Positions 10,059 through 28,110 of a DNA stretch of 28,110 nt are shown in pieces. The translations under genes and the position numbers were made by a program. Under the pieces are notes generated by a model. It searched no databases and was not told the DNA's origin. It worked only from the letters and a program-made list of their open reading frames with translations. The stretch is from a virus. Its lineage: Duplodnaviria > Heunggongvirae > Uroviricota > Caudoviricetes. The stretch is taken from IMG/VR virus record IMGVR_UViG_651053022_000001. One strand, 5' to 3'. How positions within the stretch are numbered: position 1 is the first letter of the stretch; every line of letters begins with the position of its first letter.

Positions 10059-10074
10059 TAGAGGTCAACGTAGC

Positions 10075-10110: not shown

Positions 10111-10162
10111 ATCAACCCCCTCATAGAAATCATAACCACGTTTTGTGGTTTTTGTGACGTAT

Positions 10163-10191: not shown

Positions 10192-10210
10192 ATATATAGG
10201 CATGCTTACC

Positions 10211-10240
10211 TGCACAAAAGTGCACAAATTTGCACAATTT
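10211..10240. repeat. three phased direct repeats TGCACAA at exact 10-bp spacing
   Basis: tgcacaaaag / tgcacaaatt / tgcacaattt; a fourth TGCACAA at 10303-10309; inverted TTTTGTG copies at about 10141-10160. Confidence 0.7.
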
Positions 10241-10608: not shown

Positions 10609-10637
10609 GCCGGGGCATAAATTTTTTATGCCCCGGC
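10609..10637. repeat. perfect 29-bp palindrome (13-bp arms, 3-nt centre)
   Basis: gccggggcataaa ttt tttatgccccggc, about 100 bp upstream of the 174-aa ORF. Confidence 0.7.
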
Positions 10638-10736
10638 GAAGCAGCAGACAAGCGAAGCGCGTCAGCGATACGGCACCTTGCCGACCATACTTCATAAGTG
10701 CAAAATACGAGCAAAGAAATCAATGGAGGCTGTCTT

Positions 10737-11261
10737 ATGGTCATTAATTACAAGCAGTTAAGAGAAAAACGGGAGCAGGTAAAGGAGAGCTTTCGCCGCA
10801 ATGAAGATCTGACCCCGCTTGTACGCCTTGCCCAGGGCATTGTTGATGCTTATGAAATCTCGCTGGAGCTGCCATCACAGACCTGGACAGATAGCGACGG
10901 TAATCGCCAGCATTACGTTTCATGCGGACTGGAAGCAGCCGAAGGATTTCGCAGAATGCCTTTATCCCAGATCCCTGCCGCTACCCCCAAAGCACGGGGC
11001 AGCAATGATGAGCGAAAACTGACTTTTAGTATTGAAACGGTGGTTGACGACACACCTGGCGAAGTCGCGTTCGTGCACACTCCTGTTTCGATCGCAATGT
11101 ATAACGATGAAATACAGGTTCGCGTTAATAATAATATCGTGCCACTTAAAGAAGGTAATTCACCCTACACCACCGTTTGTGAAGCCATTCAATATTACGT
11201 TCTCTCTGAAATTGATAATCTCAAGCCTGACGGCACCCAGAAAATGGTTCAACTCTGGTAA
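10737..11261 (+). CDS. hypothetical soluble protein, 174 aa (cargo gene next to portal gene Q)
   Basis: ORF with GGAGG SD 7-8 nt upstream of ATG 10737 (track ORF starts at an upstream alternative start, 10698); acidic, no TM segment; no family recognised. Confidence 0.6.
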   Translation: MVINYKQLREKREQVKESFRRNEDLTPLVRLAQGIVDAYEISLELPSQTWTDSDGNRQHYVSCGLEAAEGFRRMPLSQIPAATPKARGSNDERKLTFSIETVVDDTPGEVAFVHTPVSIAMYNDEIQVRVNNNIVPLKEGNSPYTTVCEAIQYYVLSEIDNLKPDGTQKMVQLW

Positions 11262-11292
11262 AAAGGACAGCCCCATCACGGGGCTGTTTTTT
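11261..11292. terminator. bidirectional terminator shared by the 174-aa ORF and portal gene Q
   Basis: Stem cagcccc / ggggctg with A-run before and tttttt after; the Q stop codon lies in the loop. Confidence 0.6.
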
Positions 11293-12322
11293 CATCAAGA
11301 AGAGCATAAGAGTTAAAACGGATCACCTCTTCGCCAAGCCAGTCATTGATGTGCTTCATAGCCTCCATAACGGGCATCAGCTCGTTAATTGCGTAAACCC
11401 GCGCTGCCTTCTCCACATCGCCAAACGCACTTTTTTCGCCCGGCATCGCCCCCATCAGTTGCGGCGGAACGCGGTGCGCAGCCAGCACATCATCACGGGA
11501 TGCCGCCTTAACATTCATGAATTCATCTTTTGCGGTGATCTGCTGGAACGGCAAAATTTGCACCCCCTCTTTGCCCCCGTTGGGCGCATGAATGAGCACG
11601 TTTTTAAACGCACCACCACCACGTGCCCCCTGTAGCGTTTCTTTCAGGGAGTCCATGCTTTCGCGGTTTACCTGCGCTGCACCGATGTAGATGATGCACC
11701 CGGCGTGGGATCCGTTGTCGTAGTACAGTTTTCTGAACATGTCCGCCGAATGAGAAAGGCTGGCCGAGAGTAATGCGCCAAGATATTCCGGCATGCCGTA
11801 GATTTCCTGGTTAATATCCGGATTCATCAGGTGGCACACTTTGCCAGGACGAAACTGAAACGCGTCCTTGCCATCCTGCACATACCACCATGATTCAAGA
11901 TCGCTTCCGCGTCGCATGTATTTCGCCAGGGCGTGCCGTAATTTAAGCGGTTCGCCGAGCATATTGCTTCGAAGCTCAAGGAATGCGTTACCGAACACAA
12001 ACCAGTCCAGCGCCAGCGCCGAGAAATCCTGCCGGGAAAGCAGCGGGTGCGGGATGTAGCAACCGAGTAATACATTGCGCTTAAAGTAAAGCGCAGACTG
12101 ATGCCAGGACGTTTGCCGGGCTGCTCTTGCCAGACCGTACCAGTCCACCGGGGTTTCATACCACCGCCCGTTATCAGCACAGTACATATTGTCCAGCAGG
12201 TCATGCCCGGTCAGGCGATAAGGACCATCAAATGTGAATGCACTGAGCGATGATTCTTTCCTGAGCGCATCAGCGAGATCAATGCGTGAACTCATGCGCA
12301 CTTTTTTATTTTTTCTGCTCAT
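11276..12322 (-). CDS. Q: portal protein (P2 gpQ-like)
   Basis: About 345 aa, matching the P2 portal family in size and sequence; adjacent to and co-oriented with terminase P. Confidence 0.9.
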   Translation of the reverse strand: MSRKNKKVRMSSRIDLADALRKESSLSAFTFDGPYRLTGHDLLDNMYCADNGRWYETPVDWYGLARAARQTSWHQSALYFKRNVLLGCYIPHPLLSRQDFSALALDWFVFGNAFLELRSNMLGEPLKLRHALAKYMRRGSDLESWWYVQDGKDAFQFRPGKVCHLMNPDINQEIYGMPEYLGALLSASLSHSADMFRKLYYDNGSHAGCIIYIGAAQVNRESMDSLKETLQGARGGGAFKNVLIHAPNGGKEGVQILPFQQITAKDEFMNVKAASRDDVLAAHRVPPQLMGAMPGEKSAFGDVEKAARVYAINELMPVMEAMKHINDWLGEEVIRFNSYALLDEKTAP

Positions 12323-14073
12323 CAGAACTCCATAACCATGAAACGCTCGTTTTCTCCTTCGCCGCCAATTGGTTCGTTAATGACAGCAAGCATGGTTGCC
12401 CACGCAAGGTCGCCGTGGCTGATCCCCCTCGCGCGGTCCGTTTCGTAAGTGATAAAGCCGCCCGGTGTTTTCACCTTACGCACGGCGTTAAAGGCCGCGA
12501 CCAGCTCGCGTTCGGCGCGATCGTATTCCCACCGCCCGGCACGCATTATTTGCAGCATTTTCAGTACCAGCGACCGTTTTGATGACAGCGTGAAGGTGTA
12601 CGGAATAGCAGCAGGGAAAAACCGCTTCACTATCTGATAAACAGCCTCCCCGTTCCCGCCCGTCACATCAATGCCGATGTGTTCCACGTTGTAGCGACAC
12701 GTGAACTCTTCAATGACTCTGGCCTGTTCTTCAAACTCCAGCCCCTGAACGCGTCGCGTCTCCACCGTTCGAAAACGGCCGCCAGGAACAGCCGGAGGAA
12801 CCACCACGGACACAGCGCCGCTGTCGCCGTTGCCACTACTGCCGTTTGCGTCATACCCAATCCATACCGGACGATTCCCCATCGGGCGGGGAGCAAAAGG
12901 TTTCCAGTCTTTCCAGTCGTCGTATCCGTCAACACCGCAGCCAATCAGGATATTCAGGTTAAATGCCGATTCCCCTTCGCGGACAAACTCACACATATAG
13001 AGATTGAGGAACTCGTCTTCGGTGTTTTCATCACGAATTTCGTCGATATCGGTGTGTTTCCAGCCGTGATTAACCACATCTTCCAGCGTGACAATTTGCC
13101 GCCACGTCCGGTCAGGGCAGATAAGCCCATTATGCAGCGTTTTCCAGTCCACAGAAAAACGCTGGCGTTTATGCGAGGCCTTTTTCTCGTTCCAGCGGTC
13201 GCCGTTCCAGTAGGCGTATGCCTCGTGCGTTTCGGTGGATGGCGTGGAGAAGTAGGTGCGCCGCAGTCCGCTGAGGGTTGCCATAGCGCCAGCCACCTTG
13301 CGCAGTTCAGCAAAGCGACTGACCCAGAAAAATTCATCAAAATAAAAATTGCCCGTATAGGACTGTGCCGACGCAGCAGAAGTGCCGAGAAAATGCAGCT
13401 CTGCGCCGTTGGAGAGGATGATTTTATCGCCCCCTTTCAGCTCCACATCAACTTCAGCCGCGGCCTTCTGAATAATGCTTTTAAACTGGAACGCCTGACG
13501 ACGCGACGCAGACAAAAAAATCTGGTTACGCTGGTAAGGTTGCGCCACATCGTCACGCAGCGCCATCAGCAGTGCTTCCTGTGCAAAATACCAGGTCGCC
13601 CCAATCTGTCGGGATTTCAGGATCATCCTGTTACGTATCCCGGCTTCCCTGCAAAGGGTCAGGGAGTCAAACCAGCCCCGCTGATGCCACTCCAGCCTGC
13701 TGATGATTTTTTCCCGCAGTGCGGCAATCTGTTCCGGCGTGAAATGATTTTTGAGTTTTTTCGCCCGGCCTTTCTTTCCTGCGGCCATCACATCCGGCTG
13801 GCCATCATGCAGCTTTTTAAGCTGCCGGGTCAGCAGGTCTATTTCCTTAAAGTCACCGCCTGTTTTATTCTGTTTTTCAGTAAGCTGGATGAGGCGCGCA
13901 TCGATGGACTGCGTGACACGCTGCACGGGTGGCGTTTCATCCCACTGGTCACGTTTTTTCCACGCATAAATCGTGTTCGGGTTTATTCCCATCAGACGTG
14001 ATATTTCTGCGGGCGGATAACCCTGCCAGTAAAGTTGCCGCGCACGCTGGCGCACAAAAGCGTCCTGAATCAT
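12322..14073 (-). CDS. P: terminase large (ATPase) subunit (P2 gpP-like)
   Basis: 583 aa; size, position and sequence consistent with P2 gpP; divergent from O. Confidence 0.92.
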   Translation of the reverse strand: MIQDAFVRQRARQLYWQGYPPAEISRLMGINPNTIYAWKKRDQWDETPPVQRVTQSIDARLIQLTEKQNKTGGDFKEIDLLTRQLKKLHDGQPDVMAAGKKGRAKKLKNHFTPEQIAALREKIISRLEWHQRGWFDSLTLCREAGIRNRMILKSRQIGATWYFAQEALLMALRDDVAQPYQRNQIFLSASRRQAFQFKSIIQKAAAEVDVELKGGDKIILSNGAELHFLGTSAASAQSYTGNFYFDEFFWVSRFAELRKVAGAMATLSGLRRTYFSTPSTETHEAYAYWNGDRWNEKKASHKRQRFSVDWKTLHNGLICPDRTWRQIVTLEDVVNHGWKHTDIDEIRDENTEDEFLNLYMCEFVREGESAFNLNILIGCGVDGYDDWKDWKPFAPRPMGNRPVWIGYDANGSSGNGDSGAVSVVVPPAVPGGRFRTVETRRVQGLEFEEQARVIEEFTCRYNVEHIGIDVTGGNGEAVYQIVKRFFPAAIPYTFTLSSKRSLVLKMLQIMRAGRWEYDRAERELVAAFNAVRKVKTPGGFITYETDRARGISHGDLAWATMLAVINEPIGGEGENERFMVMEF

Positions 14074-14227
14074 TGCTCCCCCTGAGTAATTACAGGAAGA
14101 TTACCCGCGCGCGAAACTGTTCTCCTTAACCCTCTGTTCTGACTGTTTTCTTACAACAAAAGCCCTTTGTATCAGCCTGTTACGCTTTGCCATCATGACT
14201 GAAGAACCAGTCAGAGGGGCAAAAACT

Positions 14228-15064
14228 ATGGCTAATGAAAAAAAGACATCCCGCAAAAAGTTTCGCGTGGCTGTCTCCGGATCAACTGTTGATGGCCGTG
14301 AAATCAGTCCGGTGCATCTGCGTGAAGCCGCCGAGAACTTCAACCCGGATGTTTACGCTGCCCGCGTGAACGTTGAGCACTATCTCTCGCCATGTCCGTC
14401 AAGCGAATTTTCCGCAATGGGCGATGTCACCGCACTGAGTACGGAAGACATTACGGAAGGTCCGCTGGCCGGACGTACTGCGCTGTATGCAGAAATCGAA
14501 CCGACCGAGCGCATGAAGCAGCTTGTCGCTGACGGCAAGAAAATCTATTCCAGTATCGAACTGCACCCGCAGTTCTCCGTTAACGGGCGCGCCTATCTGG
14601 TCGGGCTGGCGATGACCGACACCCCGGCAAGCCTGGGCACTGAGCGCCTGAAATTCACGGCACAGCAACGTCAGGCGGTGATGACGTTCAACAGTATCCA
14701 GGGTGAAGCACCGCTTATCTCCGAAGCCATCGAGTCTGAAATCATCGAAATGGCAGAACAACGCCAGGAAGAAGGCACCCAGTGGTTTAACCGCGTAATG
14801 GGGATTATTGGTCGTGGCCGCAAAGCGGATGACGCCAGTTTCTCCCGAATTCAGGAAGCGGTGGAAGGCGTTGCAACGTCACAGGCCGACATTATCGACC
14901 GTTTTAATGTGCTGGAAACCCGCCATCAGCAGGACCGCCAGAAAATCACGTCACTGACCACAGAGCTGACAGCATTGAAGGAAAAACTGCGCACGCAGGA
15001 CGGCGATCCGCAGAACCGCTTCACCGCAACGGGCGCAGCCTCCGACCAGCTGGCTGACTTCTGA
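14228..15064 (+). CDS. O: capsid scaffolding protein (P2 gpO-like)
   Basis: MANEKKTSRKKFRVAVSGSTVDGREISPVHL... resembles the gpO N-terminus; start at ATG 14228 with SD; track ORF starts at 14195. Confidence 0.88.
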   Translation: MANEKKTSRKKFRVAVSGSTVDGREISPVHLREAAENFNPDVYAARVNVEHYLSPCPSSEFSAMGDVTALSTEDITEGPLAGRTALYAEIEPTERMKQLVADGKKIYSSIELHPQFSVNGRAYLVGLAMTDTPASLGTERLKFTAQQRQAVMTFNSIQGEAPLISEAIESEIIEMAEQRQEEGTQWFNRVMGIIGRGRKADDASFSRIQEAVEGVATSQADIIDRFNVLETRHQQDRQKITSLTTELTALKEKLRTQDGDPQNRFTATGAASDQLADF

Positions 15065-15087
15065 TAAGACAAAGGAGCAAATTTTTT

Positions 15088-16140
15088 ATGAATCTGGTGA
15101 TGTCAGATATTACCCGCAACAAGCTGGGTTGCTATATGGCGCAGCAGGCGTCGCTTAACAATATCCCGGTATCTGCACTGGTATCGCGATTTACCGTGGA
15201 ACCCGCGGTGCAGCAGCGTTTTGAAAACGCCTCAAAGGAAAGTACCGAATTTACGAAAAGAATTAACGTGATCGGCGTGACCGACCAGAAAGGCGAAAAA
15301 ATCCTCCTGGACACCACCGGGCCAATTGCGCGCACGAATAGCAGTTATGACGGCATCAAACGCCGTAACCCGAATAACGTGATCGATATGAAGTCTCGTC
15401 AGTACCAGTGCGAACAGGTGAACTACGATACCTTTATTTCGTACCCACAGCTTGATACCTGGGCGGCCCACAGCGATTTTCAGTCCCGTATCAGTACACA
15501 GATCGCCCGGCAGGTAGCGCTTGATCGCATCATGATTGGCTTTAACGGCACATCCCACGCCTACGAGTCTGATTTTCACACCAACAAGCTGCTTCAGGAC
15601 GTTAACGTGGGCTGGCTGGAGCACATCAGAACCGATGCCAGCGAGCGCGTAATGAATGACGTGACGCTGACCTCCCGCAACATGGACAACACTGTGGCGC
15701 ACGCGGGTAAGTATGCGAATGCCGATGCTCTGGTACAGGATGCGCGCTCATCCCTGCTGGATGAATGGCACAAGGAAGCTGACGACCTCGCGGTGATTAT
15801 GGGGCGCAACCTGTTTAACTCGCTGCGTCTGCCCGTGCTGAACAGCATCAGCGGCCAGAATCCCAATGCGGAATTACTTGCCGGGCAGCTCATCCTGTCA
15901 TCGCGCACCATTGGCGGGCTGGGCGTGTTCCTTGCGCCGTTCTTCCCGGATGCAACGATGCTTATCACCTCGTTCAACAACCTGTCGATTTACTGGCAGA
16001 AAGGTTCAATGCGTCGCCTGATGAAAGACGAGCCGGAATACAACCGCATCGCCACCTACCAGTCCATCAATGACGCTTATGTCGTTGAAGACTATGGCAA
16101 GTGCGCGATGGTCACTGGCCTGAAGTTCGCCGACAGCTAA
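15088..16140 (+). CDS. N: major capsid protein (P2 gpN-like)
   Basis: 350 aa with several blocks matching gpN as I recall it (FTVEP, GEKI, PFFPDATMLIT, VVEDY); AAGGAG SD. Confidence 0.93.
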   Translation: MNLVMSDITRNKLGCYMAQQASLNNIPVSALVSRFTVEPAVQQRFENASKESTEFTKRINVIGVTDQKGEKILLDTTGPIARTNSSYDGIKRRNPNNVIDMKSRQYQCEQVNYDTFISYPQLDTWAAHSDFQSRISTQIARQVALDRIMIGFNGTSHAYESDFHTNKLLQDVNVGWLEHIRTDASERVMNDVTLTSRNMDNTVAHAGKYANADALVQDARSSLLDEWHKEADDLAVIMGRNLFNSLRLPVLNSISGQNPNAELLAGQLILSSRTIGGLGVFLAPFFPDATMLITSFNNLSIYWQKGSMRRLMKDEPEYNRIATYQSINDAYVVEDYGKCAMVTGLKFADS

Positions 16141-16185
16141 TCAACTCACGGCGGGCATCATGCCCGCCTGTAACGGAGAGAAAAA

Positions 16186-16986
16186 ATGATTACTCCTGCA
16201 CAACAACACTGGCAGAACGTGATGGCACAGCGCGCAGGCCGGGCGAATGAAGGTGTGGACCACGCCGCGTGTACCGCGCATGAAGAGGTGCTGTATCGTC
16301 TGCGTCTGGCACAGGCCAGGCTAAAGGCCATACAGGCCAGAAGCGCGAAAGCCGCCATCAAAAAAGAGTTGTTGCCGGACTTTTCCGGCTGGATTGAGGG
16401 AACGCTGGAGGCTGACGGCGGGCAACAGGACGAAGTAATTGCCACGCTGATGGTGTGGGCGATTGACTGCGGCGATCTTCCGCTGGCGCTGCGTATTGGT
16501 GCATATGTGGTCCGTCACAACCTCATCATGCCGGATAACTTTGGCCGTACTGCTGCCACGGTACTGACCGAAGAAATCTGCAACCCGGTACTGACGCAGG
16601 CTGGGACGGATGCCGACGCGGATTTATCCGCCTTTATCGAACCACTGGACACACTTTGGGAAATTATCGCCAACCAGGACATGCCGGACGAAGTGCGCGC
16701 CAAATTATGCAAGGCGTGTGCCTTTGCCCGTCGTGGCCTGACCGATGCAGACAACATGGCCTCATCACTGAAGCTGCTGCGCGAAGCGATGCACCTGAAC
16801 CCGAACGCAGGTGTGAAACGCGAGATTGCAACCCTTTCCCGCGCCCTGAAAAAAGCCGATTCCGCAGCCGAACCAGAAGACGCCAGCGCACAGCAGGCGC
16901 AGGACGAAAGCAGCAAAAGTAAAAAGACAACGCGGAAGCCTGCAACACGAAAAACCACCGCGACGCAGAAGGCAAAGCGCGGTTAA
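16186..16986 (+). CDS. M: terminase small (endonuclease) subunit (P2 gpM-like)
   Basis: 266 aa; DMPDEVRAKL block and Lys/Arg-rich C-terminus as in gpM. Confidence 0.9.
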   Translation: MITPAQQHWQNVMAQRAGRANEGVDHAACTAHEEVLYRLRLAQARLKAIQARSAKAAIKKELLPDFSGWIEGTLEADGGQQDEVIATLMVWAIDCGDLPLALRIGAYVVRHNLIMPDNFGRTAATVLTEEICNPVLTQAGTDADADLSAFIEPLDTLWEIIANQDMPDEVRAKLCKACAFARRGLTDADNMASSLKLLREAMHLNPNAGVKREIATLSRALKKADSAAEPEDASAQQAQDESSKSKKTTRKPATRKTTATQKAKRG

Positions 16987-17087
16987 CGACTGACCCCGTC
17001 AGCGGGCGGCGTGCGCGGTGTTCCGGTTTGACTCCGTGACCGTTTACACCGCGCACCCACCGCCCGATTTTTTCAGGAGTGAACCCC

Positions 17088-17582
17088 ATGAGTATGGTTG
17101 CCAGAACTAACCCCGGCCCCGCAGAGGACGACATCACCGACACCGATGATGGCGATACCCGTATTTCAGCGGGTGCATTCTGGCCGGATATTGTGCTGCG
17201 CGAGCTGCGTCTGGCGGTACGACTGCCGGGCCGCGTGACCACCTCCCGCCTGCTGCATACCGCCACCGGGGCCATAGCACACGTTACCCGCGAGCTGGAA
17301 GCATGGCAGCAGGAACAACAGGCGGCTGGCTATCAGACGCTGGCCGATGTTCCGGCCCCTGTAATTAACGGAGAAAGCGTCAATCTCTGGCACTGGCGCA
17401 ATGCTGTTTATACCGCCACACGCGCCCTGATTCTGGAGCGTTACCGCGATGCGGACACAACGGACAAGGGCGACCGCCGGGCGGACGCACTGGATATACA
17501 GACATCGGATTTGTGGCGCGATGTGAGCTGGGCCATCTCTGACATTCTGGGACGACCGCGAATGTTTGCGGAGCTGTGCTGA
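17088..17582 (+). CDS. L: head completion/stabilisation protein (P2 gpL-like)
   Basis: 164 aa; CAGGAG SD 8 nt upstream of ATG 17088; stop overlaps the X start. Confidence 0.85.
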   Translation: MSMVARTNPGPAEDDITDTDDGDTRISAGAFWPDIVLRELRLAVRLPGRVTTSRLLHTATGAIAHVTRELEAWQQEQQAAGYQTLADVPAPVINGESVNLWHWRNAVYTATRALILERYRDADTTDKGDRRADALDIQTSDLWRDVSWAISDILGRPRMFAELC

Positions 17583-17782
17583 TGAAAGTGAAGGCACTGG
17601 AAGGCGACACCGTGGATTCGCTCTGTTTCCGGTACTACGGCACGACACAGGGCGTCACCGAAAAGGTGCTGGATGCCAACCCCGGACTCTGTCAGCAGGT
17701 ATTTCTGGACGCCGGGCAGGAAGTGGAGATGCCGGAGCCGGAGAAGAAGAAACGAGAAATGATTCAGTTGTGGGGGGAGTAG
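17582..17782 (+). CDS. X: tail protein X (P2 gpX-like, LysM-type)
   Basis: 66 aa, MKVKALEGDTVDSLCFRYYG... similar to gpX. Confidence 0.8.
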   Translation: MKVKALEGDTVDSLCFRYYGTTQGVTEKVLDANPGLCQQVFLDAGQEVEMPEPEKKKREMIQLWGE

Positions 17783-17784
17783 CA

Positions 17785-18108
17785 GTGAGCACCATTCAAA
17801 CAGGGATCACAGAGCAGGTTATTGCGTGGCTCTTTGACCACCTGCCAACGGTGTATGCAGTAGGCGCGGCGGTCAGCATTTCCGCGCTGATGAGTCTTTA
17901 TGACGGACGAACACTGGTTCAGACCGTAACGGGATCGCTGGCGTGCGGCGTTCTTGCCATGGCCGTGGCCGGGTCGCTGCGCTTCTTCGGGATCCCTGAG
18001 GATGCAGTGACGTTTTTTGGTGCCTCAATCGGTTTTATGGGCGCAGAGAAAGCACGCGACAAGGTTATTGCAATATTTGATCGCAGGGTGAAGGAGAGGA
18101 ACGAATGA
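17785..18108 (+). CDS. putative holin
   Basis: 107-aa membrane protein with hydrophobic segments and a charged C-terminus; GTG start with GGGGGAG SD; directly upstream of and overlapping the endolysin start. Confidence 0.6.
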   Translation: MSTIQTGITEQVIAWLFDHLPTVYAVGAAVSISALMSLYDGRTLVQTVTGSLACGVLAMAVAGSLRFFGIPEDAVTFFGASIGFMGAEKARDKVIAIFDRRVKERNE

Positions 18109-18497
18109 GCAACACATTTAAATTCAGCAGCCGGAGCGAAAAGAATTTGCAGGGTGTAAATCCTGATCTGGTGAAAGTGACCCGACGGGCGCTGGAAATC
18201 TCGGAAGTGGATTTTGGTATCACCGAAGGATTGCGCAGTCGTTATCGTCAGAAGCAGCTCGTGACCACAGGCAAGAGCCAGACCATGAACAGTCGCCATC
18301 TCACAGGGCATGCCGTGGATGTTGTGGCTTATGTCGGCAACCAGGTGTCATGGGAATGGCCGCTGTACGAAAAAATCGCAGCAGCATTCAGACAGGCCAG
18401 CCAGGAACTGAATATTCCGGTGGAATGGGGCGGCGACTGGAAGACCCTGAAAGACGGACCGCATTTTCAGTTACCACACGGAGCCTATCCGGCATGA
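18105..18497 (+). CDS. endolysin, peptidase M15 family (zinc L-Ala-D-Glu / D-Ala-D-Ala peptidase type)
   Basis: 130 aa with SRHLTGHAVD and DGPHFQ zinc-ligand style motifs; this differs from the lysozyme-type gpK of P2. Confidence 0.8.
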   Translation: MSNTFKFSSRSEKNLQGVNPDLVKVTRRALEISEVDFGITEGLRSRYRQKQLVTTGKSQTMNSRHLTGHAVDVVAYVGNQVSWEWPLYEKIAAAFRQASQELNIPVEWGGDWKTLKDGPHFQLPHGAYPA

Positions 18498-18889
18498 AGC
18501 TCTGGCCCACGCTTGGCGTCGCTTTCCTTCTGATTACATCCATGCGTCTGTCGTGGTCGCTGGGCCGGGAGAACGCCAGAAACGAAGCGCAGGCCAGCAC
18601 CCTGAAAAGTACCGTCGACACACTGAATATCATCAGCGCCGGGGTACAGGATATGCAGCAGGTGCTGGCTCAGCTCCGCGCGGAAAATCAGCAACGCAAT
18701 CAGGACGGAGAGGTAAGACGTGAACAGCTACGCAACGATATTGCAAAAGATGAATGCGCCCACGCTTTGCCTGACGCTCGTTTTACTGACAGGTTGCGCA
18801 GGCACGCAGAACGCGCCAGGGCCAGCGCCGTCAGTCCGGCTTATACCGCAGACGCTGACCATGCCGGTAACGCCTCCCCCCTTCCCTGA
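18494..18889 (+). CDS. i-spanin (Rz / LysB-like)
   Basis: N-terminal TM anchor (LWPTLGVAFLLITSM) and a coiled-coil periplasmic region; start overlaps the endolysin stop. Confidence 0.7.
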   Translation: MKLWPTLGVAFLLITSMRLSWSLGRENARNEAQASTLKSTVDTLNIISAGVQDMQQVLAQLRAENQQRNQDGEVRREQLRNDIAKDECAHALPDARFTDRLRRHAERARASAVSPAYTADADHAGNASPLP

Positions 18890-19031
18890 CCCACCCACAT
18901 GGGGAAACCTCGGAATATGGGGCGACCGCCTTCTGGATGCACTGGAAACCTGTAACGCGGATAAACGGGCCATTGCTGAACTGGATAAGAGAATAGCCGA
19001 ACTGACACACCAGACGGGAGTAACACAATGA
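18750..19031 (+). CDS. o-spanin (Rz1 / LysC-like lipoprotein), overlapped architecture
   Basis: Lipobox LLTGC after a short signal peptide, Pro-rich; begins inside the i-spanin gene in another frame and extends past it. GTG 18720 is an alternative start. Confidence 0.65.
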   Translation: MNAPTLCLTLVLLTGCAGTQNAPGPAPSVRLIPQTLTMPVTPPPFPDPPTWGNLGIWGDRLLDALETCNADKRAIAELDKRIAELTHQTGVTQ

Positions 19032-21799
19032 CCAGTAAGAACTTTGCACTGATTACAGCCATGACACAGGCTGAACTGACTCAAAAGGTGAATGAACATC
19101 TTGCGAAAGGGTGGCATCTTCAGGGGGAGACGCGGGTTGCCTACGAACCCGGCACCCCGTGGTATCTAATGCAGGCAATGGTGGCCGATGGCACTACAGA
19201 CATCTCACCTGATTCCCCCCAGCACGGCAGCGTGCCGGAGTGGTATTACGTGGTGGTACTTGCTGGTCAATCCAATGCCATGTCATATGGTGAGGGAATG
19301 CCGCTGCCGGATTCTTACGATGCGCCCCACCCACGCATTAAGCAACTGGCCCGTCGCAACACAGTGACTCCCGGTGGTAAAGCATGCGCATTTAACGACA
19401 TCATTCCGGCAGACCACTGCCTGCATGATGTTCAGGATATGAGCGCACTGAATCACCCGAATGCAGACCTGAGCAAAGGGCAGTATGGCTGTGTCGGACA
19501 GGGCTTGCATATTGCCAAACGCCTGTTGCCTTACATTCCACAGAATGCCGGGATTTTACTGGTTCCATGCTGTCGTGGTGGTTCGGCATTCACCCAGGGC
19601 GCGGAGGGGACATTCAGCGAGTCCACAGGAGCCAGTCAGGATTCGGCTCGCTGGGGTGTGGGTAAACCTTTATATCAGGACCTGATTTTGCGCACGAAGG
19701 CCGCATTGCAGAAAAACCCAAAAAACATGCTGCTGGCCGTATGCTGGATGCAGGGCGAATTTGACATGAGCGCCGCTACGTACTCACAGCAACCTCCGCT
19801 GTTTACGGCCATGCTGAAACAGTTTCGTGCGGACATTACCGAGTTTAACACGCAGTGTCATGGAGGCAGAGCGGCAAGTGTGCCATGGATTTGTGGTGAC
19901 ACGACGTATTACTGGAAAAACACCTACGGCACGCAGTACGACACCATTTACGGGGCGTACAAAAACAGGGAGAGCGACAACGTTTTCTTTGTGCCGTTCC
20001 TGACCGATGGTAGTGGCAACAATACCTCCACCAACGCACCAACGGAAGATCCGGATGCTGCAAGTGAGGGAACCCTGATGCAGGCGATTGCAGCAGAAGG
20101 TGATGTGGTCGTCAGTGGTGCAACTGAGCCGGAGTGGTACTACGTCATCGTACTGGCCGGGCAATCCAATGCCATGGCTTACGGTGAAGGGCTTCCGCTT
20201 CCGGATTCATACGATGCGCCCCATCCGCGCATTAAGCAACTGGCCCGTCGTAACACAGTGACTCCCGGTGGTGAAGTATGCGTATTTAACGACATCATTC
20301 CTGCTGACCATTGTCTGCATGATGTTCAGGATATGAGTACGATTAACCATCCCCGGGCTGACCTGAGCAAAGGGCAGTACGGCTGTGTCGGACAGGGCTT
20401 ACATATTGCCAAAAAACTGCTTCCGTATATCCCTAATAATGCGGGGATCCTGCTGGTACCATGCTGTCGTGGTGGTTCGGCATTCACCCAGGGCACGGAG
20501 GGGACATTCAGCGAGTCCACGGGGGCCAGTCAGGATTCGGCTCGCTGGGGAGTGGGTAAGCCGTTATATCAGGATCTGCTTTTCCGCACGAAGGCAGCAT
20601 TGCAGAAAAACCCGAAAAACGTTTTGCTGGCGATATGCTGGATGCAGGGGGAATTCGATATGACGAATGCCAGTTACGCCCAGCAGCCAGCAGCATTTCT
20701 TGCAATGGTACAGCAGTTCCGTGCTGACCTTGCCGGGCTGGCGGCGCAGTGTCACGGTGGAAGTCCGGCATCAGTCCCCTGGATTTGTGGCGACACGACA
20801 TACGCGTGGAAACAAGAACACGGTACGCAATATGAAGTGGTATATGGTGCATATAAAGGTAAAGAATCCCAGCAGATTTATTTTGTTCCCTTTATGACCG
20901 ATGGTAGCGGAGTTAATACACCGACAAACAACCCGTCAGAAGATCCTGATATTGCCGGGTCTGGTTATTACGGTTCGGCATCCCGAACGAACAAAAACTG
21001 GGTATCATCAAATCGCCAGACGCATTTCAGCTCATGGGCGCGTCGTGGCATTATTCCCGATCGTATGGCAACCGCTATTCTGAACGTAGCCGGTCGCACC
21101 TTAGCCTTCATCAGTGGTAAGGCACCGGAAATCAAACCCTCGCCCGGCGGCGACACGCCATCGGGGCCGTCTGAAGATGCATCCGTACGCACAATCTCCC
21201 TGTTGCCGACAGCCGGAGATGCTGCTGCGCAGGGCTGGAGCATTAAGAATGGCGGAATTCAGTTGTCAGATGGTGTATTTAAGATCACCAAGCAGAGCAA
21301 TAAAGCCTGGTCCCTGACGCGCCCGGTGGATGACGCAGTCTCCCTGCTGACACGGGGTGGCAGACTGAGCTGTAAGTTTCGACTGTCAGGCGCACTGACC
21401 AACAATCAGTTCGGTCTGGGAATTTATCTGTATACCGATGTAGCGTTACCTGACGTCGTGGCGATGACCGGGACTGGTAACCCGTTCCTGATGTCGTTCT
21501 TCACCCAGACCACAGACGGCAAACTGAATCTGATGCATCACAAGAAAGCAGGAAACACAAAGTTGGGCGAGTTCGGGAATTACAGTAACGACTGGCAGAC
21601 GCTGGAGCTGGTGTTCACCGCCGGCAGTGCCACGGTTACTCCGAAACTGAATGGAGTGGCTGGCCCGGCATTCCAGGTCATAAAAGACAGTCTGACACTG
21701 GGGCTGAATGCGCTGACGTTAACTGATATCACTAAAAATGCCGCGTACGGCGTCGATATCGGCAGCCTGGTGCTGGAAATCAATAATCCCGCAGCATAA
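19028..21799 (+). CDS. NanS-p-like prophage O-acetylesterase: DUF1737-type N-terminus, two tandem SGNH/sialate O-acetylesterase domains, C-terminal putative carbohydrate-binding domain
   Basis: 923 aa; the GQSNAMxYGEG esterase block occurs twice (about residues 70-345 and 365-640) with highly similar sequence. Confidence 0.8.
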   Translation: MTSKNFALITAMTQAELTQKVNEHLAKGWHLQGETRVAYEPGTPWYLMQAMVADGTTDISPDSPQHGSVPEWYYVVVLAGQSNAMSYGEGMPLPDSYDAPHPRIKQLARRNTVTPGGKACAFNDIIPADHCLHDVQDMSALNHPNADLSKGQYGCVGQGLHIAKRLLPYIPQNAGILLVPCCRGGSAFTQGAEGTFSESTGASQDSARWGVGKPLYQDLILRTKAALQKNPKNMLLAVCWMQGEFDMSAATYSQQPPLFTAMLKQFRADITEFNTQCHGGRAASVPWICGDTTYYWKNTYGTQYDTIYGAYKNRESDNVFFVPFLTDGSGNNTSTNAPTEDPDAASEGTLMQAIAAEGDVVVSGATEPEWYYVIVLAGQSNAMAYGEGLPLPDSYDAPHPRIKQLARRNTVTPGGEVCVFNDIIPADHCLHDVQDMSTINHPRADLSKGQYGCVGQGLHIAKKLLPYIPNNAGILLVPCCRGGSAFTQGTEGTFSESTGASQDSARWGVGKPLYQDLLFRTKAALQKNPKNVLLAICWMQGEFDMTNASYAQQPAAFLAMVQQFRADLAGLAAQCHGGSPASVPWICGDTTYAWKQEHGTQYEVVYGAYKGKESQQIYFVPFMTDGSGVNTPTNNPSEDPDIAGSGYYGSASRTNKNWVSSNRQTHFSSWARRGIIPDRMATAILNVAGRTLAFISGKAPEIKPSPGGDTPSGPSEDASVRTISLLPTAGDAAAQGWSIKNGGIQLSDGVFKITKQSNKAWSLTRPVDDAVSLLTRGGRLSCKFRLSGALTNNQFGLGIYLYTDVALPDVVAMTGTGNPFLMSFFTQTTDGKLNLMHHKKAGNTKLGEFGNYSNDWQTLELVFTAGSATVTPKLNGVAGPAFQVIKDSLTLGLNALTLTDITKNAAYGVDIGSLVLEINNPAA
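19233..20965 (+). repeat. in-frame tandem duplication (two units of ~840 bp, period 894 bp) inside the esterase gene
   Basis: Long stretches read almost identically at 19233-20070 and 20127-20965 (for example gagtggta..gcattcacccagggc..gaggggacattcagcgagtccac); by eye roughly 85-90 percent identity. Confidence 0.85.
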
Positions 21800-21822
21800 G
21801 GAAGAGCAGGAGAGCAAAACAG

Positions 21823-22290
21823 ATGCTTAAGACAAACAGTCTGCGAGAGTCCATGCTTCATGGGTGTCGGTGGTGCCAGGCTAATCCCGAGAAATTCACC
21901 ATTTTCGTGGAGAGCGGCAACATTGAAACGACCGGAGAAGCGCCCTCGTTTGTTTACCGCTATCAGATGGTGATGTTTGTCATGGATTACGCCGGAGAGC
22001 TGGACGACCTCACGCTGCCGCTGCTGGCGTGGTTATCCGAAAATCAGCCACAGTTGTTGCTCAATCCGGAGCGTAATCAGGACATCAAATTTTCTGCCGT
22101 TATCAATGACGATGACAGCGCCGATCTCCTGTTTACGCTCCCCCTGCGGGAACGCGTTCGCATCACGCGCAACAGTCAGGGCACACCGCAGGCAGAACAC
22201 CTGCCGGAGCCAAAACCCCGTCTGCCTTCTTCCGAAGGCGACTGGTCGCATGTATTCCAGGATGTGACGTGGGGTGAAAGCGATGGATAA
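21823..22290 (+). CDS. R: tail completion protein (P2 gpR-like)
   Basis: 155 aa, same size and position as P2 gpR. Confidence 0.85.
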   Translation: MLKTNSLRESMLHGCRWCQANPEKFTIFVESGNIETTGEAPSFVYRYQMVMFVMDYAGELDDLTLPLLAWLSENQPQLLLNPERNQDIKFSAVINDDDSADLLFTLPLRERVRITRNSQGTPQAEHLPEPKPRLPSSEGDWSHVFQDVTWGESDG

Positions 22291-22918
22291 GGCATTCACC
22301 CGCGTGGATGAAACCTTTGAGGCTATCCGCGACAGCCTGAATCAGCAGGCCATCAATAACATCGCCAGAAAGCTGGCACAGGATTTACGTCGCGCCCAGC
22401 AGGCACGTATCCGGTCACAAAAAGCGCCGGACGGGACCGAATGGACACCACGCAGACGCCGCGTAACCCGGATACAGGAGCGCATTCGCTTTATCTGGAA
22501 TAACGAAGCACGCACGCTGAAAAACTGGCATCACGACACAGGGAAATACGGGCGAACCATTACCGGGTGGGATGAGGATAAAAACAATATCCGCACGTTT
22601 TACCGGGATGACATCGACCGTTTTCTGGAAATACGCACCCGGCGCATCAACCAGGACAGCACAAAGCGCGTCCCCATGTTCGTAAAACTGCGCACCGCCC
22701 GCTACCTGAAAGCCCGTGCAGATGCCTCCGGTGTGACGGTGGGTTACAGCGGCGTGGCCGCACGTATTGCACGCGTTCATCAGTTCGGTGAGCGCGATCA
22801 GGTTGCGCCGGGCATTTTCACCGATTACCCGGTACGTGAGCTGTTGGGTATCAGCCAGGCAGATGAGCGCCTGATTTATAACACGGTGCTGGGCCGGATT
22901 GCGGAGGCTGTACGGTGA
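22283..22918 (+). CDS. S: tail completion / virion morphogenesis protein (P2 gpS family)
   Basis: 211 aa; start overlaps the R stop; longer than P2 gpS but fits the family by position and sequence style. Confidence 0.72.
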   Translation: MDKAFTRVDETFEAIRDSLNQQAINNIARKLAQDLRRAQQARIRSQKAPDGTEWTPRRRRVTRIQERIRFIWNNEARTLKNWHHDTGKYGRTITGWDEDKNNIRTFYRDDIDRFLEIRTRRINQDSTKRVPMFVKLRTARYLKARADASGVTVGYSGVAARIARVHQFGERDQVAPGIFTDYPVRELLGISQADERLIYNTVLGRIAEAVR

Positions 22919-23496
22919 GCGCAGAACTCATGCGACTGCTGAGCAACATCATCCGCACCGGGATCATCTCTGAAGTTGATGAGAAGTCCTGGCGCGTGCG
23001 CGTTCGCAGCGGCGAACTGGAAACAGGCTGGTTGCGCTGGAACACCACGCGCGCGGGAGCCTTCAATGTGTGGCTGCCGCCATCACCAGGCGAACAGGTG
23101 GTAATTGCCTGCATTGGCGGCAACCCGGAAACCGCCATGATAATTGGCAGCCTGTGGAGTGATGCCAGTCCGGCCCCCGGCAAAAGCCTGAAAGAAATCG
23201 TGGTCAGCGCGCCGGATGGCGCGGTGTTCCGCTACGACGCAGACGCTGGCGCACTGAGCGCCAGCGGCATGAAAACAGCCACCCTGCAGGCATCCGTCAG
23301 CGTGACACTGGATACGCCCGTCGTGGAATGCACAAACCTTCTGAGAACGGCGACGCTTGACGTCACAAAAGAGGGAAAGATGAGCGGCAATATCACGCAC
23401 AGCGGCGGCAATTTCACCTCAAACGGCATTACCGTGCATACGCATAAGCACGGTGGCGTTAAAGGTGGCAGCGATTCGACAGGAGGCCCGCAGTGA
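22915..23496 (+). CDS. V: baseplate assembly protein V / spike (P2 gpV-like)
   Basis: 193 aa; overlaps the S stop. Confidence 0.85.
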   Translation: MSAELMRLLSNIIRTGIISEVDEKSWRVRVRSGELETGWLRWNTTRAGAFNVWLPPSPGEQVVIACIGGNPETAMIIGSLWSDASPAPGKSLKEIVVSAPDGAVFRYDADAGALSASGMKTATLQASVSVTLDTPVVECTNLLRTATLDVTKEGKMSGNITHSGGNFTSNGITVHTHKHGGVKGGSDSTGGPQ

Positions 23497-23843
23497 CAAC
23501 CCGCTACACAGGAATGAACCCGGACGGGACGGGAAACCTGAACGATATGGAGCACCTGAAACAGTCAGTCAGGGACATCCTGATCACCCCGCTGGCAAGC
23601 CGGGTTATGCGACGGGAATATGGCAGCCTTGTGCCTGATTTGATTGACGAACCCATGAATAACACCACGCGTCTGCAATGCATGAGTGCTGCCGTGATTG
23701 CGCTGACACGATGGGAACCCCGCATTGCCCTGGACGCCATCGACGTTGTCTGGAAGGCAGGAGGCCGCGCCGGGGTGACGCTGTCGGGCACTGTCATGCA
23801 GACCATGCAGAATGTTGAATTAACCATCACGCTGAGAGAGTAA
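23493..23843 (+). CDS. W: baseplate protein W (gp25-like)
   Basis: 116 aa; overlaps the V stop. Confidence 0.88.
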   Translation: MTTRYTGMNPDGTGNLNDMEHLKQSVRDILITPLASRVMRREYGSLVPDLIDEPMNNTTRLQCMSAAVIALTRWEPRIALDAIDVVWKAGGRAGVTLSGTVMQTMQNVELTITLRE

Positions 23844-23846
23844 ATC

Positions 23847-24743
23847 ATGCCTGCTGTTGATCTTTCCCAGTTACCGGAACCCGCCATCATCGCGGAGCCT
23901 GATTTTGAGGCAATTCTGGCTGACACAAAGGCCATGATGATTGCGTCCTATCCTGCCGAACAGCGTGAAGCCGTCTCCGCCGCGCTGGAGCTGGAATCAG
24001 AACCCCTGAACGTTATCGCTCAAACCATGTCGTTTCGTGAAATGCTGTTACGCCAGCGGGTTAACGAGGGCGCACGCGCCTGCATGTTAAGCCACGGTTC
24101 AGGGACAAACCTGGACAACCTCGCGGGCAATATGAACACAAAGCGCCTGGTTATCACTCCGGCAACGGATACCACCGACGCGGTGATGGAGAGCGACACC
24201 TCGCTGAGACTGCGGGCGCAGCGGGCGTATGACGGCCTGAGTGTTGCTGGCCCGTCAGGTGCATACGAGTATTTTGCACGCAGCGCCAGCGGTCTGGTGC
24301 GTGATGCGCGGGCCATCAGCCCGTCTCCGGCCTGTGTGACGGTTTCCATTCTGTCCACTGAAGGCGACGGCACAGCAACGGAGGCGTTGCTTAATACCGT
24401 TCGCGCCGTTCTGAATGCAGAGGATACCCGCCCGGTGGCCGACCGACTGACCGTACAGAGCGCCAGCATCGTGACATGGCGGCTGAATGCAAAACTGTAC
24501 TTTTACCCCGGCCCGGAATCCGAACCTATTCTGGCTGCGGCTGAATCGTCGTTCAGGAAGTGGCTGGCTGAGCAGGGGCTTATTGGTCAGGACGTGGCGT
24601 TGTCAGCCATTGCTGCCGCACTTCATGTGCACGGCGTGCAACGCGTGGAGATAATCGAACCCACACAGAATATGGCCATCAGCGACATACAGGCGGCGCG
24701 CTGTGAGTCATTCACCATCAGCGAAGGTGGGCGTAATGAGTAA
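23847..24743 (+). CDS. J: baseplate assembly protein J
   Basis: 298 aa, P2 gpJ-like in size and position. Confidence 0.9.
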   Translation: MPAVDLSQLPEPAIIAEPDFEAILADTKAMMIASYPAEQREAVSAALELESEPLNVIAQTMSFREMLLRQRVNEGARACMLSHGSGTNLDNLAGNMNTKRLVITPATDTTDAVMESDTSLRLRAQRAYDGLSVAGPSGAYEYFARSASGLVRDARAISPSPACVTVSILSTEGDGTATEALLNTVRAVLNAEDTRPVADRLTVQSASIVTWRLNAKLYFYPGPESEPILAAAESSFRKWLAEQGLIGQDVALSAIAAALHVHGVQRVEIIEPTQNMAISDIQAARCESFTISEGGRNE

Positions 24744-25266
24744 TTCACTGTTACCGCCATCAGCCAGCAATTTCATGCGTTGCGCCGAAGCTGTCGGAGC
24801 GCGCATTACAGACATCCCGGTAGACCTCAACACGCTGTGGTCACCGGACACCTGCCCGGTGCATCTGCTGCCTTATCTCGCCTGGGCATTTTCCGTTGAC
24901 CGCTGGGATCGCAACTGGCCGGAAGAGACAAAGCGACAGGTGATTCGTGATGCATGGCTGATACACCGACACAAAGGGACCATCAGCGCACTGCGCCGGG
25001 CCATTGAGCCGCTGGGATACCTCATTCGCGTGTCTGAGTGGTGGGAGTTCGGCGGAGAACCGGGAACATTTACCGTTGAAGTCGGCACGCTGGACAGTGG
25101 CGTGACGGAGGAAATGTATCTGGAAATGGAGCGGTTGATTGCTGATGCCCGCCCGGTCAGCCGCCACATGACAGGGCTGAATATCATTCAGGAGATTCAG
25201 GGAGATATTTTCGCGGCGGCAGCAACTTACGACGGCGAAGTCATTACCATTTATCCGGACGATTAA
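24736..25266 (+). CDS. I: baseplate / tail protein I
   Basis: 176 aa from ATG 24736, which overlaps the J stop; same length as P2 gpI. Confidence 0.85.
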   Translation: MSNSLLPPSASNFMRCAEAVGARITDIPVDLNTLWSPDTCPVHLLPYLAWAFSVDRWDRNWPEETKRQVIRDAWLIHRHKGTISALRRAIEPLGYLIRVSEWWEFGGEPGTFTVEVGTLDSGVTEEMYLEMERLIADARPVSRHMTGLNIIQEIQGDIFAAAATYDGEVITIYPDD

Positions 25267-25268
25267 GC

Positions 25269-26504
25269 ATGAGTACCACAACACGTAAATTTAAAACCGT
25301 TATCACCGATACGGGTGCCAAAAAATTAGCTCAGGCAGCCGCGCCAGATGGTAAGCCTGTCCGCCTGACTCATATGGCCGTGGGCGACGGTGGCGGCACG
25401 TTGCCCACACCAGACAGTAAGCAGACCCGTCTGGTGCATGAGGTGTGGCGACATACTGTTAATCGCGTCATCCTGGACGCAACACATCAGAACCGCATTA
25501 TTGCGGAGCTGGTTATTCCTCCTGAAACGGGCGGATTCTGGATCCGGGAAATTGGTGTATTTGATGAGCACGGCGATTTAATCGCGGTGGGCAATACTGC
25601 CGAAAGTTACAAGCCAGCCGTTGCCGAAGGGTCCGGTCGTGCACAAACATTTCGCACCATTCTGACCGTATCCAGCACTGCCACCGTGGTGCTTACCGTG
25701 GATAACACCATGGTGATGGCCACAGTGGATTACGTGGATGACAAACTGAAAGAGCATGAACAGTCACGACGTCACCCGGACGCCTCGCTGACCGCAAAAG
25801 GCTTTGTTCAACTCAGTAGCGCCACTAACAGCGTGTCTGAAACGCAGGCTGCAACGCCGAAAGCAGTAAAGGCCGCGTATGACCTTGCTAACGGTAAATA
25901 TACTGCGCAGGATGCCAGCACGACGCGAAAAGGCCTTGTCCAGCTCAGTAGCGCCACCAACAGCGTGTCTGAAACGCAGGCTGCAACGCCGAAAGCAGTA
26001 AAGGCCGCGTATGACCTTGCTAACGCAAAATATACCGCTCAGGACGCCACGACGGCACAAAAAGGGATAGTCCAGCTCAGTAGTGCCACCAACAGCACGT
26101 CTGAAACACTGGCCGCGACATCGAAAGCTGTTAAGGCGGTAATGGATGAAACGAACAAGAAAGCGCCCTTAAATAGTCCTGCACTGACCGGAACGCCAAC
26201 AACACCAACTGCGCGACAGGGAACGAATAATACCCAAATCGCAAGCACGGCTTTCGTTATGGCTGCGATTGCCGCCCTTGTAGATTCGTCACCTGATGCA
26301 CTGAACACGCTGAACGAGCTGGCTGCGGCGCTGGGCAACGACCCGAATTTTGCGACCACCATGACTAACGCGCTTGCGGGTAAGCAACCGAAAGATGCCA
26401 CCCTGACGGCGCTGGCCGGACTTACTACTGCGGCAGGCAAGTTTCCGTATTTTACGGGGAATGATGTCGCCAGCCTGGCAACCCTGACAAAAGTCATTTA
26501 CTAA
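25269..26504 (+). CDS. H: tail fibre protein H, N-terminal (constant) portion only; probably C-terminally truncated
   Basis: 411 aa versus about 669 aa for P2 H; contains three 44-aa tail-fibre repeats; stop codon is immediately followed by AT-rich non-phage DNA and gnd. Confidence 0.85.
   Translation: MSTTTRKFKTVITDTGAKKLAQAAAPDGKPVRLTHMAVGDGGGTLPTPDSKQTRLVHEVWRHTVNRVILDATHQNRIIAELVIPPETGGFWIREIGVFDEHGDLIAVGNTAESYKPAVAEGSGRAQTFRTILTVSSTATVVLTVDNTMVMATVDYVDDKLKEHEQSRRHPDASLTAKGFVQLSSATNSVSETQAATPKAVKAAYDLANGKYTAQDASTTRKGLVQLSSATNSVSETQAATPKAVKAAYDLANAKYTAQDATTAQKGIVQLSSATNSTSETLAATSKAVKAVMDETNKKAPLNSPALTGTPTTPTARQGTNNTQIASTAFVMAAIAALVDSSPDALNTLNELAAALGNDPNFATTMTNALAGKQPKDATLTALAGLTTAAGKFPYFTGNDVASLATLTKVIY
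25797..26192 (+). repeat. three tandem 132-bp (44-codon) repeats inside H
   Basis: Repeated unit encoding G-x-VQLSSATNS-x-SET-x-AAT-x-KAVKA..., with near-identical DNA at 25800, 25932 and 26064. Confidence 0.75.
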
Positions 26505-26703
26505 AGCATTTCGATGGCATATAAGGAGTATTACGCGCTACATATTACGGAAACCAATTCTTTCTTATAAAAACTATAGAAAAATTACATCCGAACTGGT
26601 AAAGTGATTAAATAAAGTCCTAATTTTACTACTGAAATGGTATCTTTATTTAAAGATCTTTGCTTTATATACCAATTTTTTAACGCCCTGACAGGAGTAA
26701 ACA

Positions 26704-28110
26704 ATGTCAAAGCAACAGATCGGCGTCGTCGGTATGGCAGTGATGGGGCGCAACCTTGCGCTCAACATCGAAAGCCGTGGTTATACCGTCTCTATTTTCA
26801 ACCGTTCCCGTGAAAAAACGGAAGAAGTGATTGCCGAAAATCCAGGCAAAAAACTGGTTCCTTACTATACGGTGAAAGAGTTTGTTGAATCTCTGGAAAC
26901 GCCTCGTCGCATCCTGTTAATGGTGAAAGCAGGTGCAGGCACGGATGCTGCTATTGATTCCCTTAAGCCGTACCTCGATAAAGGTGACATCATCATTGAT
27001 GGTGGTAACACCTTCTTCCAGGACACTATTCGTCGTAATCGTGAGCTTTCTGCAGAAGGCTTTAACTTCATCGGTACTGGTGTTTCTGGCGGTGAAGAAG
27101 GCGCGCTGAAAGGACCTTCCATTATGCCTGGTGGCCAGAAAGAAGCCTATGAACTGGTTGCGCCGATCCTGACCAAAATCGCCGCAGTGGCTGAAGACGG
27201 GGAGCCATGCGTTACCTATATTGGTGCCGATGGCGCAGGCCACTATGTGAAGATGGTTCACAACGGTATTGAATACGGTGATATGCAGCTGATTGCTGAA
27301 GCCTATTCTCTGCTTAAAGGTGGCCTGAACCTCACCAACGAAGAACTGGCGCAGACCTTTACCGAGTGGAATAACGGTGAACTGAGCAGCTACCTGATTG
27401 ACATTACCAAAGATATCTTCACCAAAAAAGATGAAGACGGTAACTACCTGGTTGATGTGATTCTGGATGAAGCTGCAAACAAAGGTACGGGTAAATGGAC
27501 CAGCCAGAGCGCGCTGGATCTCGGCGAACCGCTGTCGCTGATTACCGAGTCTGTGTTTGCACGTTATATCTCTTCTCTGAAAGATCAGCGCGTTGCCGCG
27601 TCTAAAGTTCTCTCTGGCCCGCAAGCGCAGCGAGCAGGCGACAAAGCTGAGTTTATCGAGAAGGTTCGTCGTGCGCTGTATCTGGGCAAAATCGTTTCTT
27701 ACGCTCAGGGCTTCTCTCAGTTGCGTGCTGCGTCTGAAGAATACAACTGGGATCTGAACTACGGCGAAATCGCGAAGATTTTCCGTGCTGGCTGCATCAT
27801 CCGTGCGCAGTTCCTGCAGAAAATCACCGATGCATACGCCGAAAATCCGCAGATCGCTAACCTGCTGCTGGCTCCGTACTTTAAGCAAATCGCCGATGAC
27901 TATCAGCAGGCGCTGCGCGATGTCGTTGCTTATGCAGTACAGAACGGTATCCCGGTTCCGACCTTCGCCGCTGCGGTTGCCTATTATGACAGCTACCGTG
28001 CCGCTGTTCTGCCTGCAAACCTGATCCAGGCACAGCGTGACTATTTCGGTGCACATACTTATAAGCGCATCGATAAAGAAGGTGTGTTCCATACCGAATG
28101 GCTGGATTAA
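26704..28110 (+). CDS. gnd: 6-phosphogluconate dehydrogenase, decarboxylating; complete 468 aa
   Basis: Full-length ORF with AGGAG SD; sequence matches Gnd as I recall it ([16 protein letters not shown]-binding N-terminus). Confidence 0.96.

Follow-up and report, generated by a model that had tools for sequence, protein, structure and literature searches.

A prophage tail-fibre gene cut off at a non-homologous junction with the gnd region in E. coli ST131-like DNA

The window, i.e. the whole stretch of 28,110 nucleotides that was analysed, carries a tail-fibre gene H that ends after 411 codons next to DNA leading into gnd. This end is almost certainly a secondary, non-homologous breakpoint and neither the native end of the gene nor the product of invertase switching or of a simple deletion. 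The remnants of H, of the now dead invertase and of the glycosyltransferase gene in the window are functionless by-products, and H is not a new kind of tail fibre but an ordinary broken prophage gene at a structural breakpoint of a known kind. The cause that we prefer is a set of joins made during assembly, scaffolding or gap-filling, a preference held at about even strength.

Composition of the window and native layout of the prophage

Five segments make up the window, each 99.98–100% identical to E. coli ST131 (EC958-like, O25b:H4). The first four are as follows:

1..9668, no strand assigned: segment S1, with serS, hok, ogr, D, FI, FII, E, T, U and an invertase remnant, in native ST131 order and orientation
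9669..20071, no strand assigned: prophage block S2, 100% identical to EC958 and flipped relative to 1-9668
20072..20965, + strand: insert S3, 894 bp, equal to codons 42-339 of the SASA esterase gene of a lambdoid prophage
20966..26495, + strand: prophage block S4, with the 3' part of the esterase gene, R, S, V, W, J, I and H up to codon 409

The fifth, bases 26496-28110 (1615 bp), is 100% identical to the end of the ST131 O25b cluster and gnd. S1 is 99.98% identical to EC958. S2 contains a DUF4760 remnant, the portal gene Q, the terminase gene P, capsid and lysis genes, and the 5' part of an esterase gene. S4 departs from EC958 at three bases, one being the lambdoid T at 21271 and the other two lying near 259xx in the repeat region of H. 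Relative to the order on the serS side of EC958, S2 and S4 lie on the other strand. The whole 28,110 bases are covered by non-IS reference segments, with no IS at any junction, and the window contains no Ns.

The prophage is of the P88-like type (Xuanwuvirus, Peduoviridae). Its native order, in EC958 as well as in phage P88, is H, chaperone, inverted chaperone, inverted alternative tip, invertase, the U-to-FI genes on the opposite strand, and D. The first-pass annotation had expected the P2 order, with a single G after H; a P88-like prophage has two chaperone genes there. In this phage group, the FI-to-U tail genes lie naturally on the strand opposite to H (window 3499-9084 versus 11276-26495; P88; locus L013). 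Expectations based on the gene order of P2 mislead because of this opposite orientation and the position of these genes after the invertase. Compared with the module of phage P88 and of the serS-adjacent prophage of EC958, the window has the same H residues 1-409, V, W, J, I and U-to-FI genes. In that module, H runs on for about 250 residues more and is followed by two chaperone genes of opposite orientation, an alternative tip and a complete invertase; the window lacks all of these, and its H block is flipped relative to the invertase.

Beyond the portal gene, just about 1.6 kb of prophage is present in the window (9669-11275). The early region, namely replication endonuclease, parM, cox, repressor and integrase, is absent from it.

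The truncated tail-fibre gene H

25269..26504, + strand: H, 3'-truncated tail-fibre gene of 411 codons, namely 409 native codons plus Ile-Tyr-stop

The open reading frame of about 411 codons described in the first-pass annotation is correct (25269-26504), as is its statement that the receptor-binding half and the chaperone are missing, neither of which was found by tblastn of the window. H residues 1-409 align to the 661-aa H of the EC958 prophage and are 99.8–100% identical to the H of EC958/P88-like prophages; the identity ends at base 26495. Homology stops at residue 409 of 661, and the C-terminal receptor-binding part, about 250 aa in relatives, is absent from the H of the window. Past the break, the H of EC958 reads GGGCGGGATATT..., encoding LTKV/GRDILAKST.... 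tblastn with the C-terminus of the EC958 H, the two tail-fibre assembly proteins and the alternative H tip gave no match anywhere in the window. No chaperone gene lies immediately downstream of H, and both EC958 chaperones are unmatched by tblastn in the window.

The idea of an H that is short by nature, with its fibre tip encoded by another gene elsewhere, would have nothing in its favour but the intact N-terminal domains: as judged by domain search, the ORF starts with a tail-collar domain (PF12571, residues 6-153, E = 4e-54), and it has three PF03406 (Phage_fiber_2) repeats (E = 1.3e-60). Among the 120 best-scoring homologues listed, the complete ones that are identical over residues 1-409 are all at least 661 aa long, and one of these sits on at least 1000 contigs. 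Homologues in the same set that are shorter than 661 aa are contig-end partials, mostly of about 452 aa. Furthermore, the viable phage P88 carries a 764-aa H with chaperones next to it, and the final two codons and the stop of the window H derive from an out-of-frame glycosyltransferase gene. The idea was rejected on the length of the complete relatives among those 120 and is next to impossible.

Two further observations concern the gene itself. Cluster P0035 holds 909 'partial' H proteins of 452 aa, which represent the routine short-read assembly break of the ST131 H, inside the inverted repeat. The three internal repeats of H (window 25793-26137; approximately 131 bp; 85–87% mutual identity) are native to the gene and unrelated to the break.

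The junction between H and the O-antigen side

The DNA around the junction at the end of H, named J2, reads as follows:

26490..26501, no strand assigned: junction J2, break between 26495 and 26496; blunt, with zero microhomology and no shared base
26496..26607, + strand: glycosyltransferase remnant, the last 112 bp of the terminal gene of the O25b cluster, including the stop codon
26608..26703, + strand: native spacer of 96 bp between the glycosyltransferase gene and gnd
26704..28110, + strand: gnd (6-phosphogluconate dehydrogenase), intact, 100% identical to ST131

The flanks of J2 are ...ACAAAAGTC on the H side and ATTTACTAAAGC... on the glycosyltransferase side; identity to H ends with ...CTGACAAAAGTC at 26495. 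The join is out of frame, and the glycosyltransferase remnant is read as Ile-Tyr-stop after H codon 409. The other 680 bp of the terminal O25b glycosyltransferase gene are missing from the window. The GC content is about 0.54 in H and 0.415 across 26400-26799, a drop that agrees with the AT-rich DNA noted between H and gnd in the first-pass annotation, and gnd starts at 26704. That annotation took the stretch for generic gnd-upstream DNA; it is instead the end of the O25b glycosyltransferase gene (26496-26607) plus the spacer. The suggestion that the O-antigen cluster is gone is too simple, since its last 112 bp are present.

The region from the glycosyltransferase gene to gnd is unbroken in 424 complete O25b genomes and broken in the window. 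The remaining E. coli and other O types have in common with it just the last ~1-23 bp before the gnd ATG, and 26496 to about 26680 is therefore O25b-specific DNA. J2 as a natural boundary of the O-antigen cluster was rejected on these grounds, 424 of the 424 O25b genomes being intact at this position and other O types sharing only ~1-23 bp. Neither an RNA family (Rfam) nor a terminator was found across 26200-26900, and the six break ends have no common motif, restriction site or long microhomology. An SspI site lies at the glycosyltransferase break, probably by chance in AT-rich DNA.

The invertase, the crossover sites and junction J1

The second junction, J1, lies at the other end of the flipped prophage block.

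9113..9668, - strand: remnant of the tail-fibre DNA invertase, residues 16-199 only
9666..9668, no strand assigned: junction J1, an inversion-type join between the invertase remnant and a 3'-truncated DUF4760 gene

The invertase remnant lacks the first 15 codons and hence the N-terminal catalytic serine (VRVS). The overlap at J1 is 3 nt (TCT), and the two genes meet head-on in inverted orientation (feature span 9113-10013). In EC958, the native crossover sites are 26 bp long and lie at 14334-14359 and 17082-17107 of locus L001, inside the 170-nt arms of an inverted repeat. On the upstream side, J2 stops approximately 50 bp short of the first crossover core and 33 bp short of the inverted-repeat arm, and the break in the invertase gene at J1 lies 111 bp beyond the second core. 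The stretch that is missing (EC958 L001 14297-17205) takes in both inverted-repeat arms with 33 bp and about 95 bp of flank, respectively. A 2.9-kb invertible fibre-tip segment is thereby lost, and with it the two crossover sites, the two chaperone genes and invertase codons 1-15.

The site search found no crossover site in the window beyond chance level. Conservation of the fibre gene in E. coli continues to L001 14352-14354, which is the crossover site, and so runs past the break in the window. A break at the crossover site or at a natural mosaic boundary was rejected because the position is ~50 bp upstream of the core. The end of H had been placed at the constant/variable boundary by the first-pass annotation; it is near this boundary, by the same distance upstream. 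The 130-aa invertase ORF of the window is on record only in the six arrangements shown, which keep the order H, chaperone, invertible segment, invertase; one of the six has an IS1 insertion. An IS1 lies within the invertible fibre-tip segment of this prophage in the ST131-like genome AP026479.1 (L018, locus 8425-9071).

Invertible tail-fibre segments occur in Mu (G/Gin), P1 (C/Cin) and e14 (P/Pin). Modules of this type are native to ST131 and P88, with a constant part of H, 170-nt inverted repeats that contain the 26-bp crossover sites, and an adjoining serine invertase; the window differs from them in lacking a crossover site, a variable part and an active invertase. A Gin/Hin-type prophage invertase that recombined the crossover site of H with a pseudo-site upstream of gnd would account for the position of J2 within about 50 bp of a crossover site and for the fact that the invertase gene is broken 111 bp from the other site. 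However, the break is off the 2-bp core, natural mosaic boundaries of the fibre gene sit at this core and not at 26495, neither flank of J2 is like the 26-bp site, none of which is left in the window, and the invertase itself is truncated. These features make such a switch very improbable.

The esterase insert and junction J3

The third junction, J3 (between 20071 and 20072), falls within the SASA/DUF6645 esterase gene of the P88-like prophage, after codon 348. The insert that follows, S3, is 100% identical to the lambdoid esterase gene; its donor prophage lies about 0.5 Mb off, on the opposite chromosomal strand. After S3, the return to the P88-like esterase gene runs via a repeat of ~750 bp common to both esterase genes. 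The product of the resulting ORF (window 19028-21799) is an in-frame protein of 923 aa with two SASA esterase domains.

The breakpoint of J3 on the prophage side (L001 8766) is the last base before the shared ~750-bp repeat, and the one on the lambdoid side (L005 4001) is in single-copy sequence. The repeat itself carries alleles of both genes: those of the prophage at 21018, 21073 and 21112, and the lambdoid T at 21271, a position at which 7 of the 7 natural copies checked have G.

Geometry of the rearrangement

On the EC958 chromosome, the window follows a path from 948,556 to 958,223 on the plus strand, then from 977,068 down to 961,133 on the minus strand and finally from 2,301,484 down to 2,299,870 on the minus strand. 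On the ST131 map, the prophage is at 0.96 Mb and gnd at about 2.26-2.30 Mb, and the flanks of J2 are 1.34 Mb apart. Both flanks are on the minus strand, with a jump from the lower to the higher coordinate while reading in descending direction. The order of the blocks is reference-like (serS-side tail genes, H-to-DUF4760 block, segment to gnd), with the second and the third flipped. The simplest description is the loss of 958,224-961,132 (2.9 kb), a flip of the H-to-DUF4760 block (about 16-16.8 kb) and a flip of 1.32 Mb.

The first-pass annotation had proposed deletion or recombination at J2. Recombination stands, in a secondary and non-native form. A simple deletion from H to gnd that took with it the tip of the fibre, its chaperone and the host DNA in between fits the absence of the first two and of most of the last O-antigen gene; unless the chromosome of the source strain is ordered very differently, it is geometrically excluded because, by the order of the flanks, it would remove the other 3.8 Mb, including the origin (oriC). 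The orientation of the serS-side block, opposite to that of the H block, and the essential genes between the two loci likewise speak against it, which leaves it extremely unlikely. The single junction seen at that stage does exist as J2, but the window holds three and J2 is not interpretable alone.

The dif site is at 1,694,012, and the breakpoints 977,069 and 2,301,484 give arms of 717 and 607 kb (L003, L020, L021), so that the 1.32-Mb flip shifts the replichore balance by about 110 kb only. The chance of such symmetry for a random misjoin is about 2–4%. Among single observations, the near symmetry around dif is the best hint of a real rearrangement, suggestive but not a proof.

P2 eduction is a prophage-associated loss of his-gnd-rfb by deletion next to a P2 prophage near his. 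The window resembles it in involving both a P2-family prophage and the gnd/O-antigen region, and differs from it in the site of the prophage (serS, 1.3 Mb away) and in a geometry that is not that of a deletion. A natural counterpart is E. coli strain F2_407_2_2 (NZ_CP074756.1, L002, locus 14913-37524), where the portal-to-H block is likewise flipped next to the invertase gene. There, IS26 is present at both ends, one copy directly adjoining the invertase gene, and the invertase is intact, whereas the window has no IS and both junction genes are truncated.

Uniqueness of the junctions

J2 and the duplicated esterase region are spanned in none of 5,426 complete E. coli genomes, and exact-string scans for the three junction strings found them absent from IMG/VR, the GTDB species representatives and the JGI metagenomes. 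Exact-protein look-up in an index of 153 billion genes found no entry for the 411-aa H, the 923-aa esterase or the fused DUF4760 product. The tape-measure protein of the window is represented by 10,196 blocks in the gene index; the contigs read from these showed seven distinct arrangements, none with the junctions of the window and most with the native layout. A literature search on ST131 inversions at this locus yielded nothing relevant.

Origin of the junctions

Where the breaks lie, how the blocks are arranged, that the joins are unique and what the native layout is were all established in the analysis of the window; the cause is inferred, and the preferred one is joins made during assembly, scaffolding or gap-filling. 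Three breakpoints would then have cut the P88-like ST131 prophage and host DNA into five blocks that were re-joined; the dropped piece would be the repeat-rich, orientation-variable segment, the hardest for assemblers, and the mixed alleles in the esterase repeat would be a consensus over a collapsed repeat. Such joins fit three private junctions within 17 kb of otherwise ST131-perfect sequence, a reference-like order in which only the orientations are wrong, an esterase insert exactly where unique sequence meets a paralogue-shared repeat, and the mixture of both paralogues' alleles inside this repeat. Assembly misjoins at invertible or repeated prophage DNA are similar to the window in the loss of an orientation-variable segment, flipped flanks, a paralogue insert at the edge of a repeat and mixed alleles. 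Two things set the window apart from them: several of its breaks fall in unique sequence, and its large flip is symmetric about the terminus, as is typical of real, tolerated inversions. The breaks in DUF4760, in the glycosyltransferase gene and at L005 4001 are single-copy, unlike repeat-driven contig ends; ordinary short-read contig ends at repeats were rejected accordingly, as they fit only the prophage side of J3. In draft ST131 assemblies, the usual break in H is at residue ~452 (the 909-member cluster) and not at 409, a difference that also counts in favour of a real event. Further points against assembly joins are the window's freedom from Ns, its perfect base-level accuracy and the fact that, to our knowledge, de Bruijn assemblers are incapable of inventing junction k-mers. 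The balance is close, and the assembly reading is kept at roughly even strength.

The main competitor, with a probability somewhat below even, is a real and recent multi-break rearrangement in an ST131 isolate, made up of segment loss, a 16.8-kb inversion and a 1.32-Mb inversion. The ends would have been joined without homology, by alternative end-joining or gyrase-type illegitimate recombination; alternatively, successive intramolecular transpositions of IS26/IS1 could have produced them, with IS copies that are missing from the sequence; the reciprocal junctions, where inverted target-site duplications would be expected, fall outside the window. Clean junctions in unique sequence with 0-3 nt of overlap, a 1.32-Mb flip that spans dif with the arms and balance shift given above, and the natural precedent of F2_407_2_2, an IS26-flanked inversion with the block in matching orientation beside the invertase, are consistent with such an event, as is the natural IS1 in the invertible segment of AP026479.1. 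The breaks 50 and 111 bp outside the crossover cores are as expected from resected ends, and the mosaic of alleles in the esterase repeat also fits patchy heteroduplex repair. However, three independent illegitimate joins would be needed in 17 kb with zero divergence since, the two inversions must have one breakpoint in common, no IS is present at any junction, and the arrangement is absent from all other ST131 assemblies searched. In addition, J3 falls exactly on a homology boundary, a coincidence of about 1 in 1000 for a random break. A reading as one event, in which an abortive double-strand cut by the invertase at each crossover site freed the segment and the resected ends (50 and 111 bp) were joined non-homologously to other broken ends, appears improbable.

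Implications

The biological weight of the window is small: at best, it is a structural variant peculiar to a single ST131 isolate and, at worst, an assembly join. If the junctions are real, the prophage would be dead or non-infective for want of a fibre tip and an invertase, and the last O-antigen glycosyltransferase gene would be disrupted, probably with a rough phenotype that could have been selected, e.g. by phage or serum. If the single-event reading were true, an IS-free, terminus-symmetric inversion of 1.3 Mb would have killed the prophage and the last O25b glycosyltransferase gene in a pandemic clone, and a phage site-specific recombinase would have seeded a shattering-type chromosomal rearrangement.

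For annotation, the 411-aa 'tail fibre', the 923-aa double-esterase and the truncated invertase are not to be taken as new protein architectures, and the adjacency of serS and gnd is unfit for synteny or O-typing without read support.

A minor point concerns the gpD-like ORF (window 2232-3473, - strand), which is readable as 413 aa from an upstream ATG. Its annotation is inconsistent: identical DNA is publicly called 369, 306 or 266 aa.
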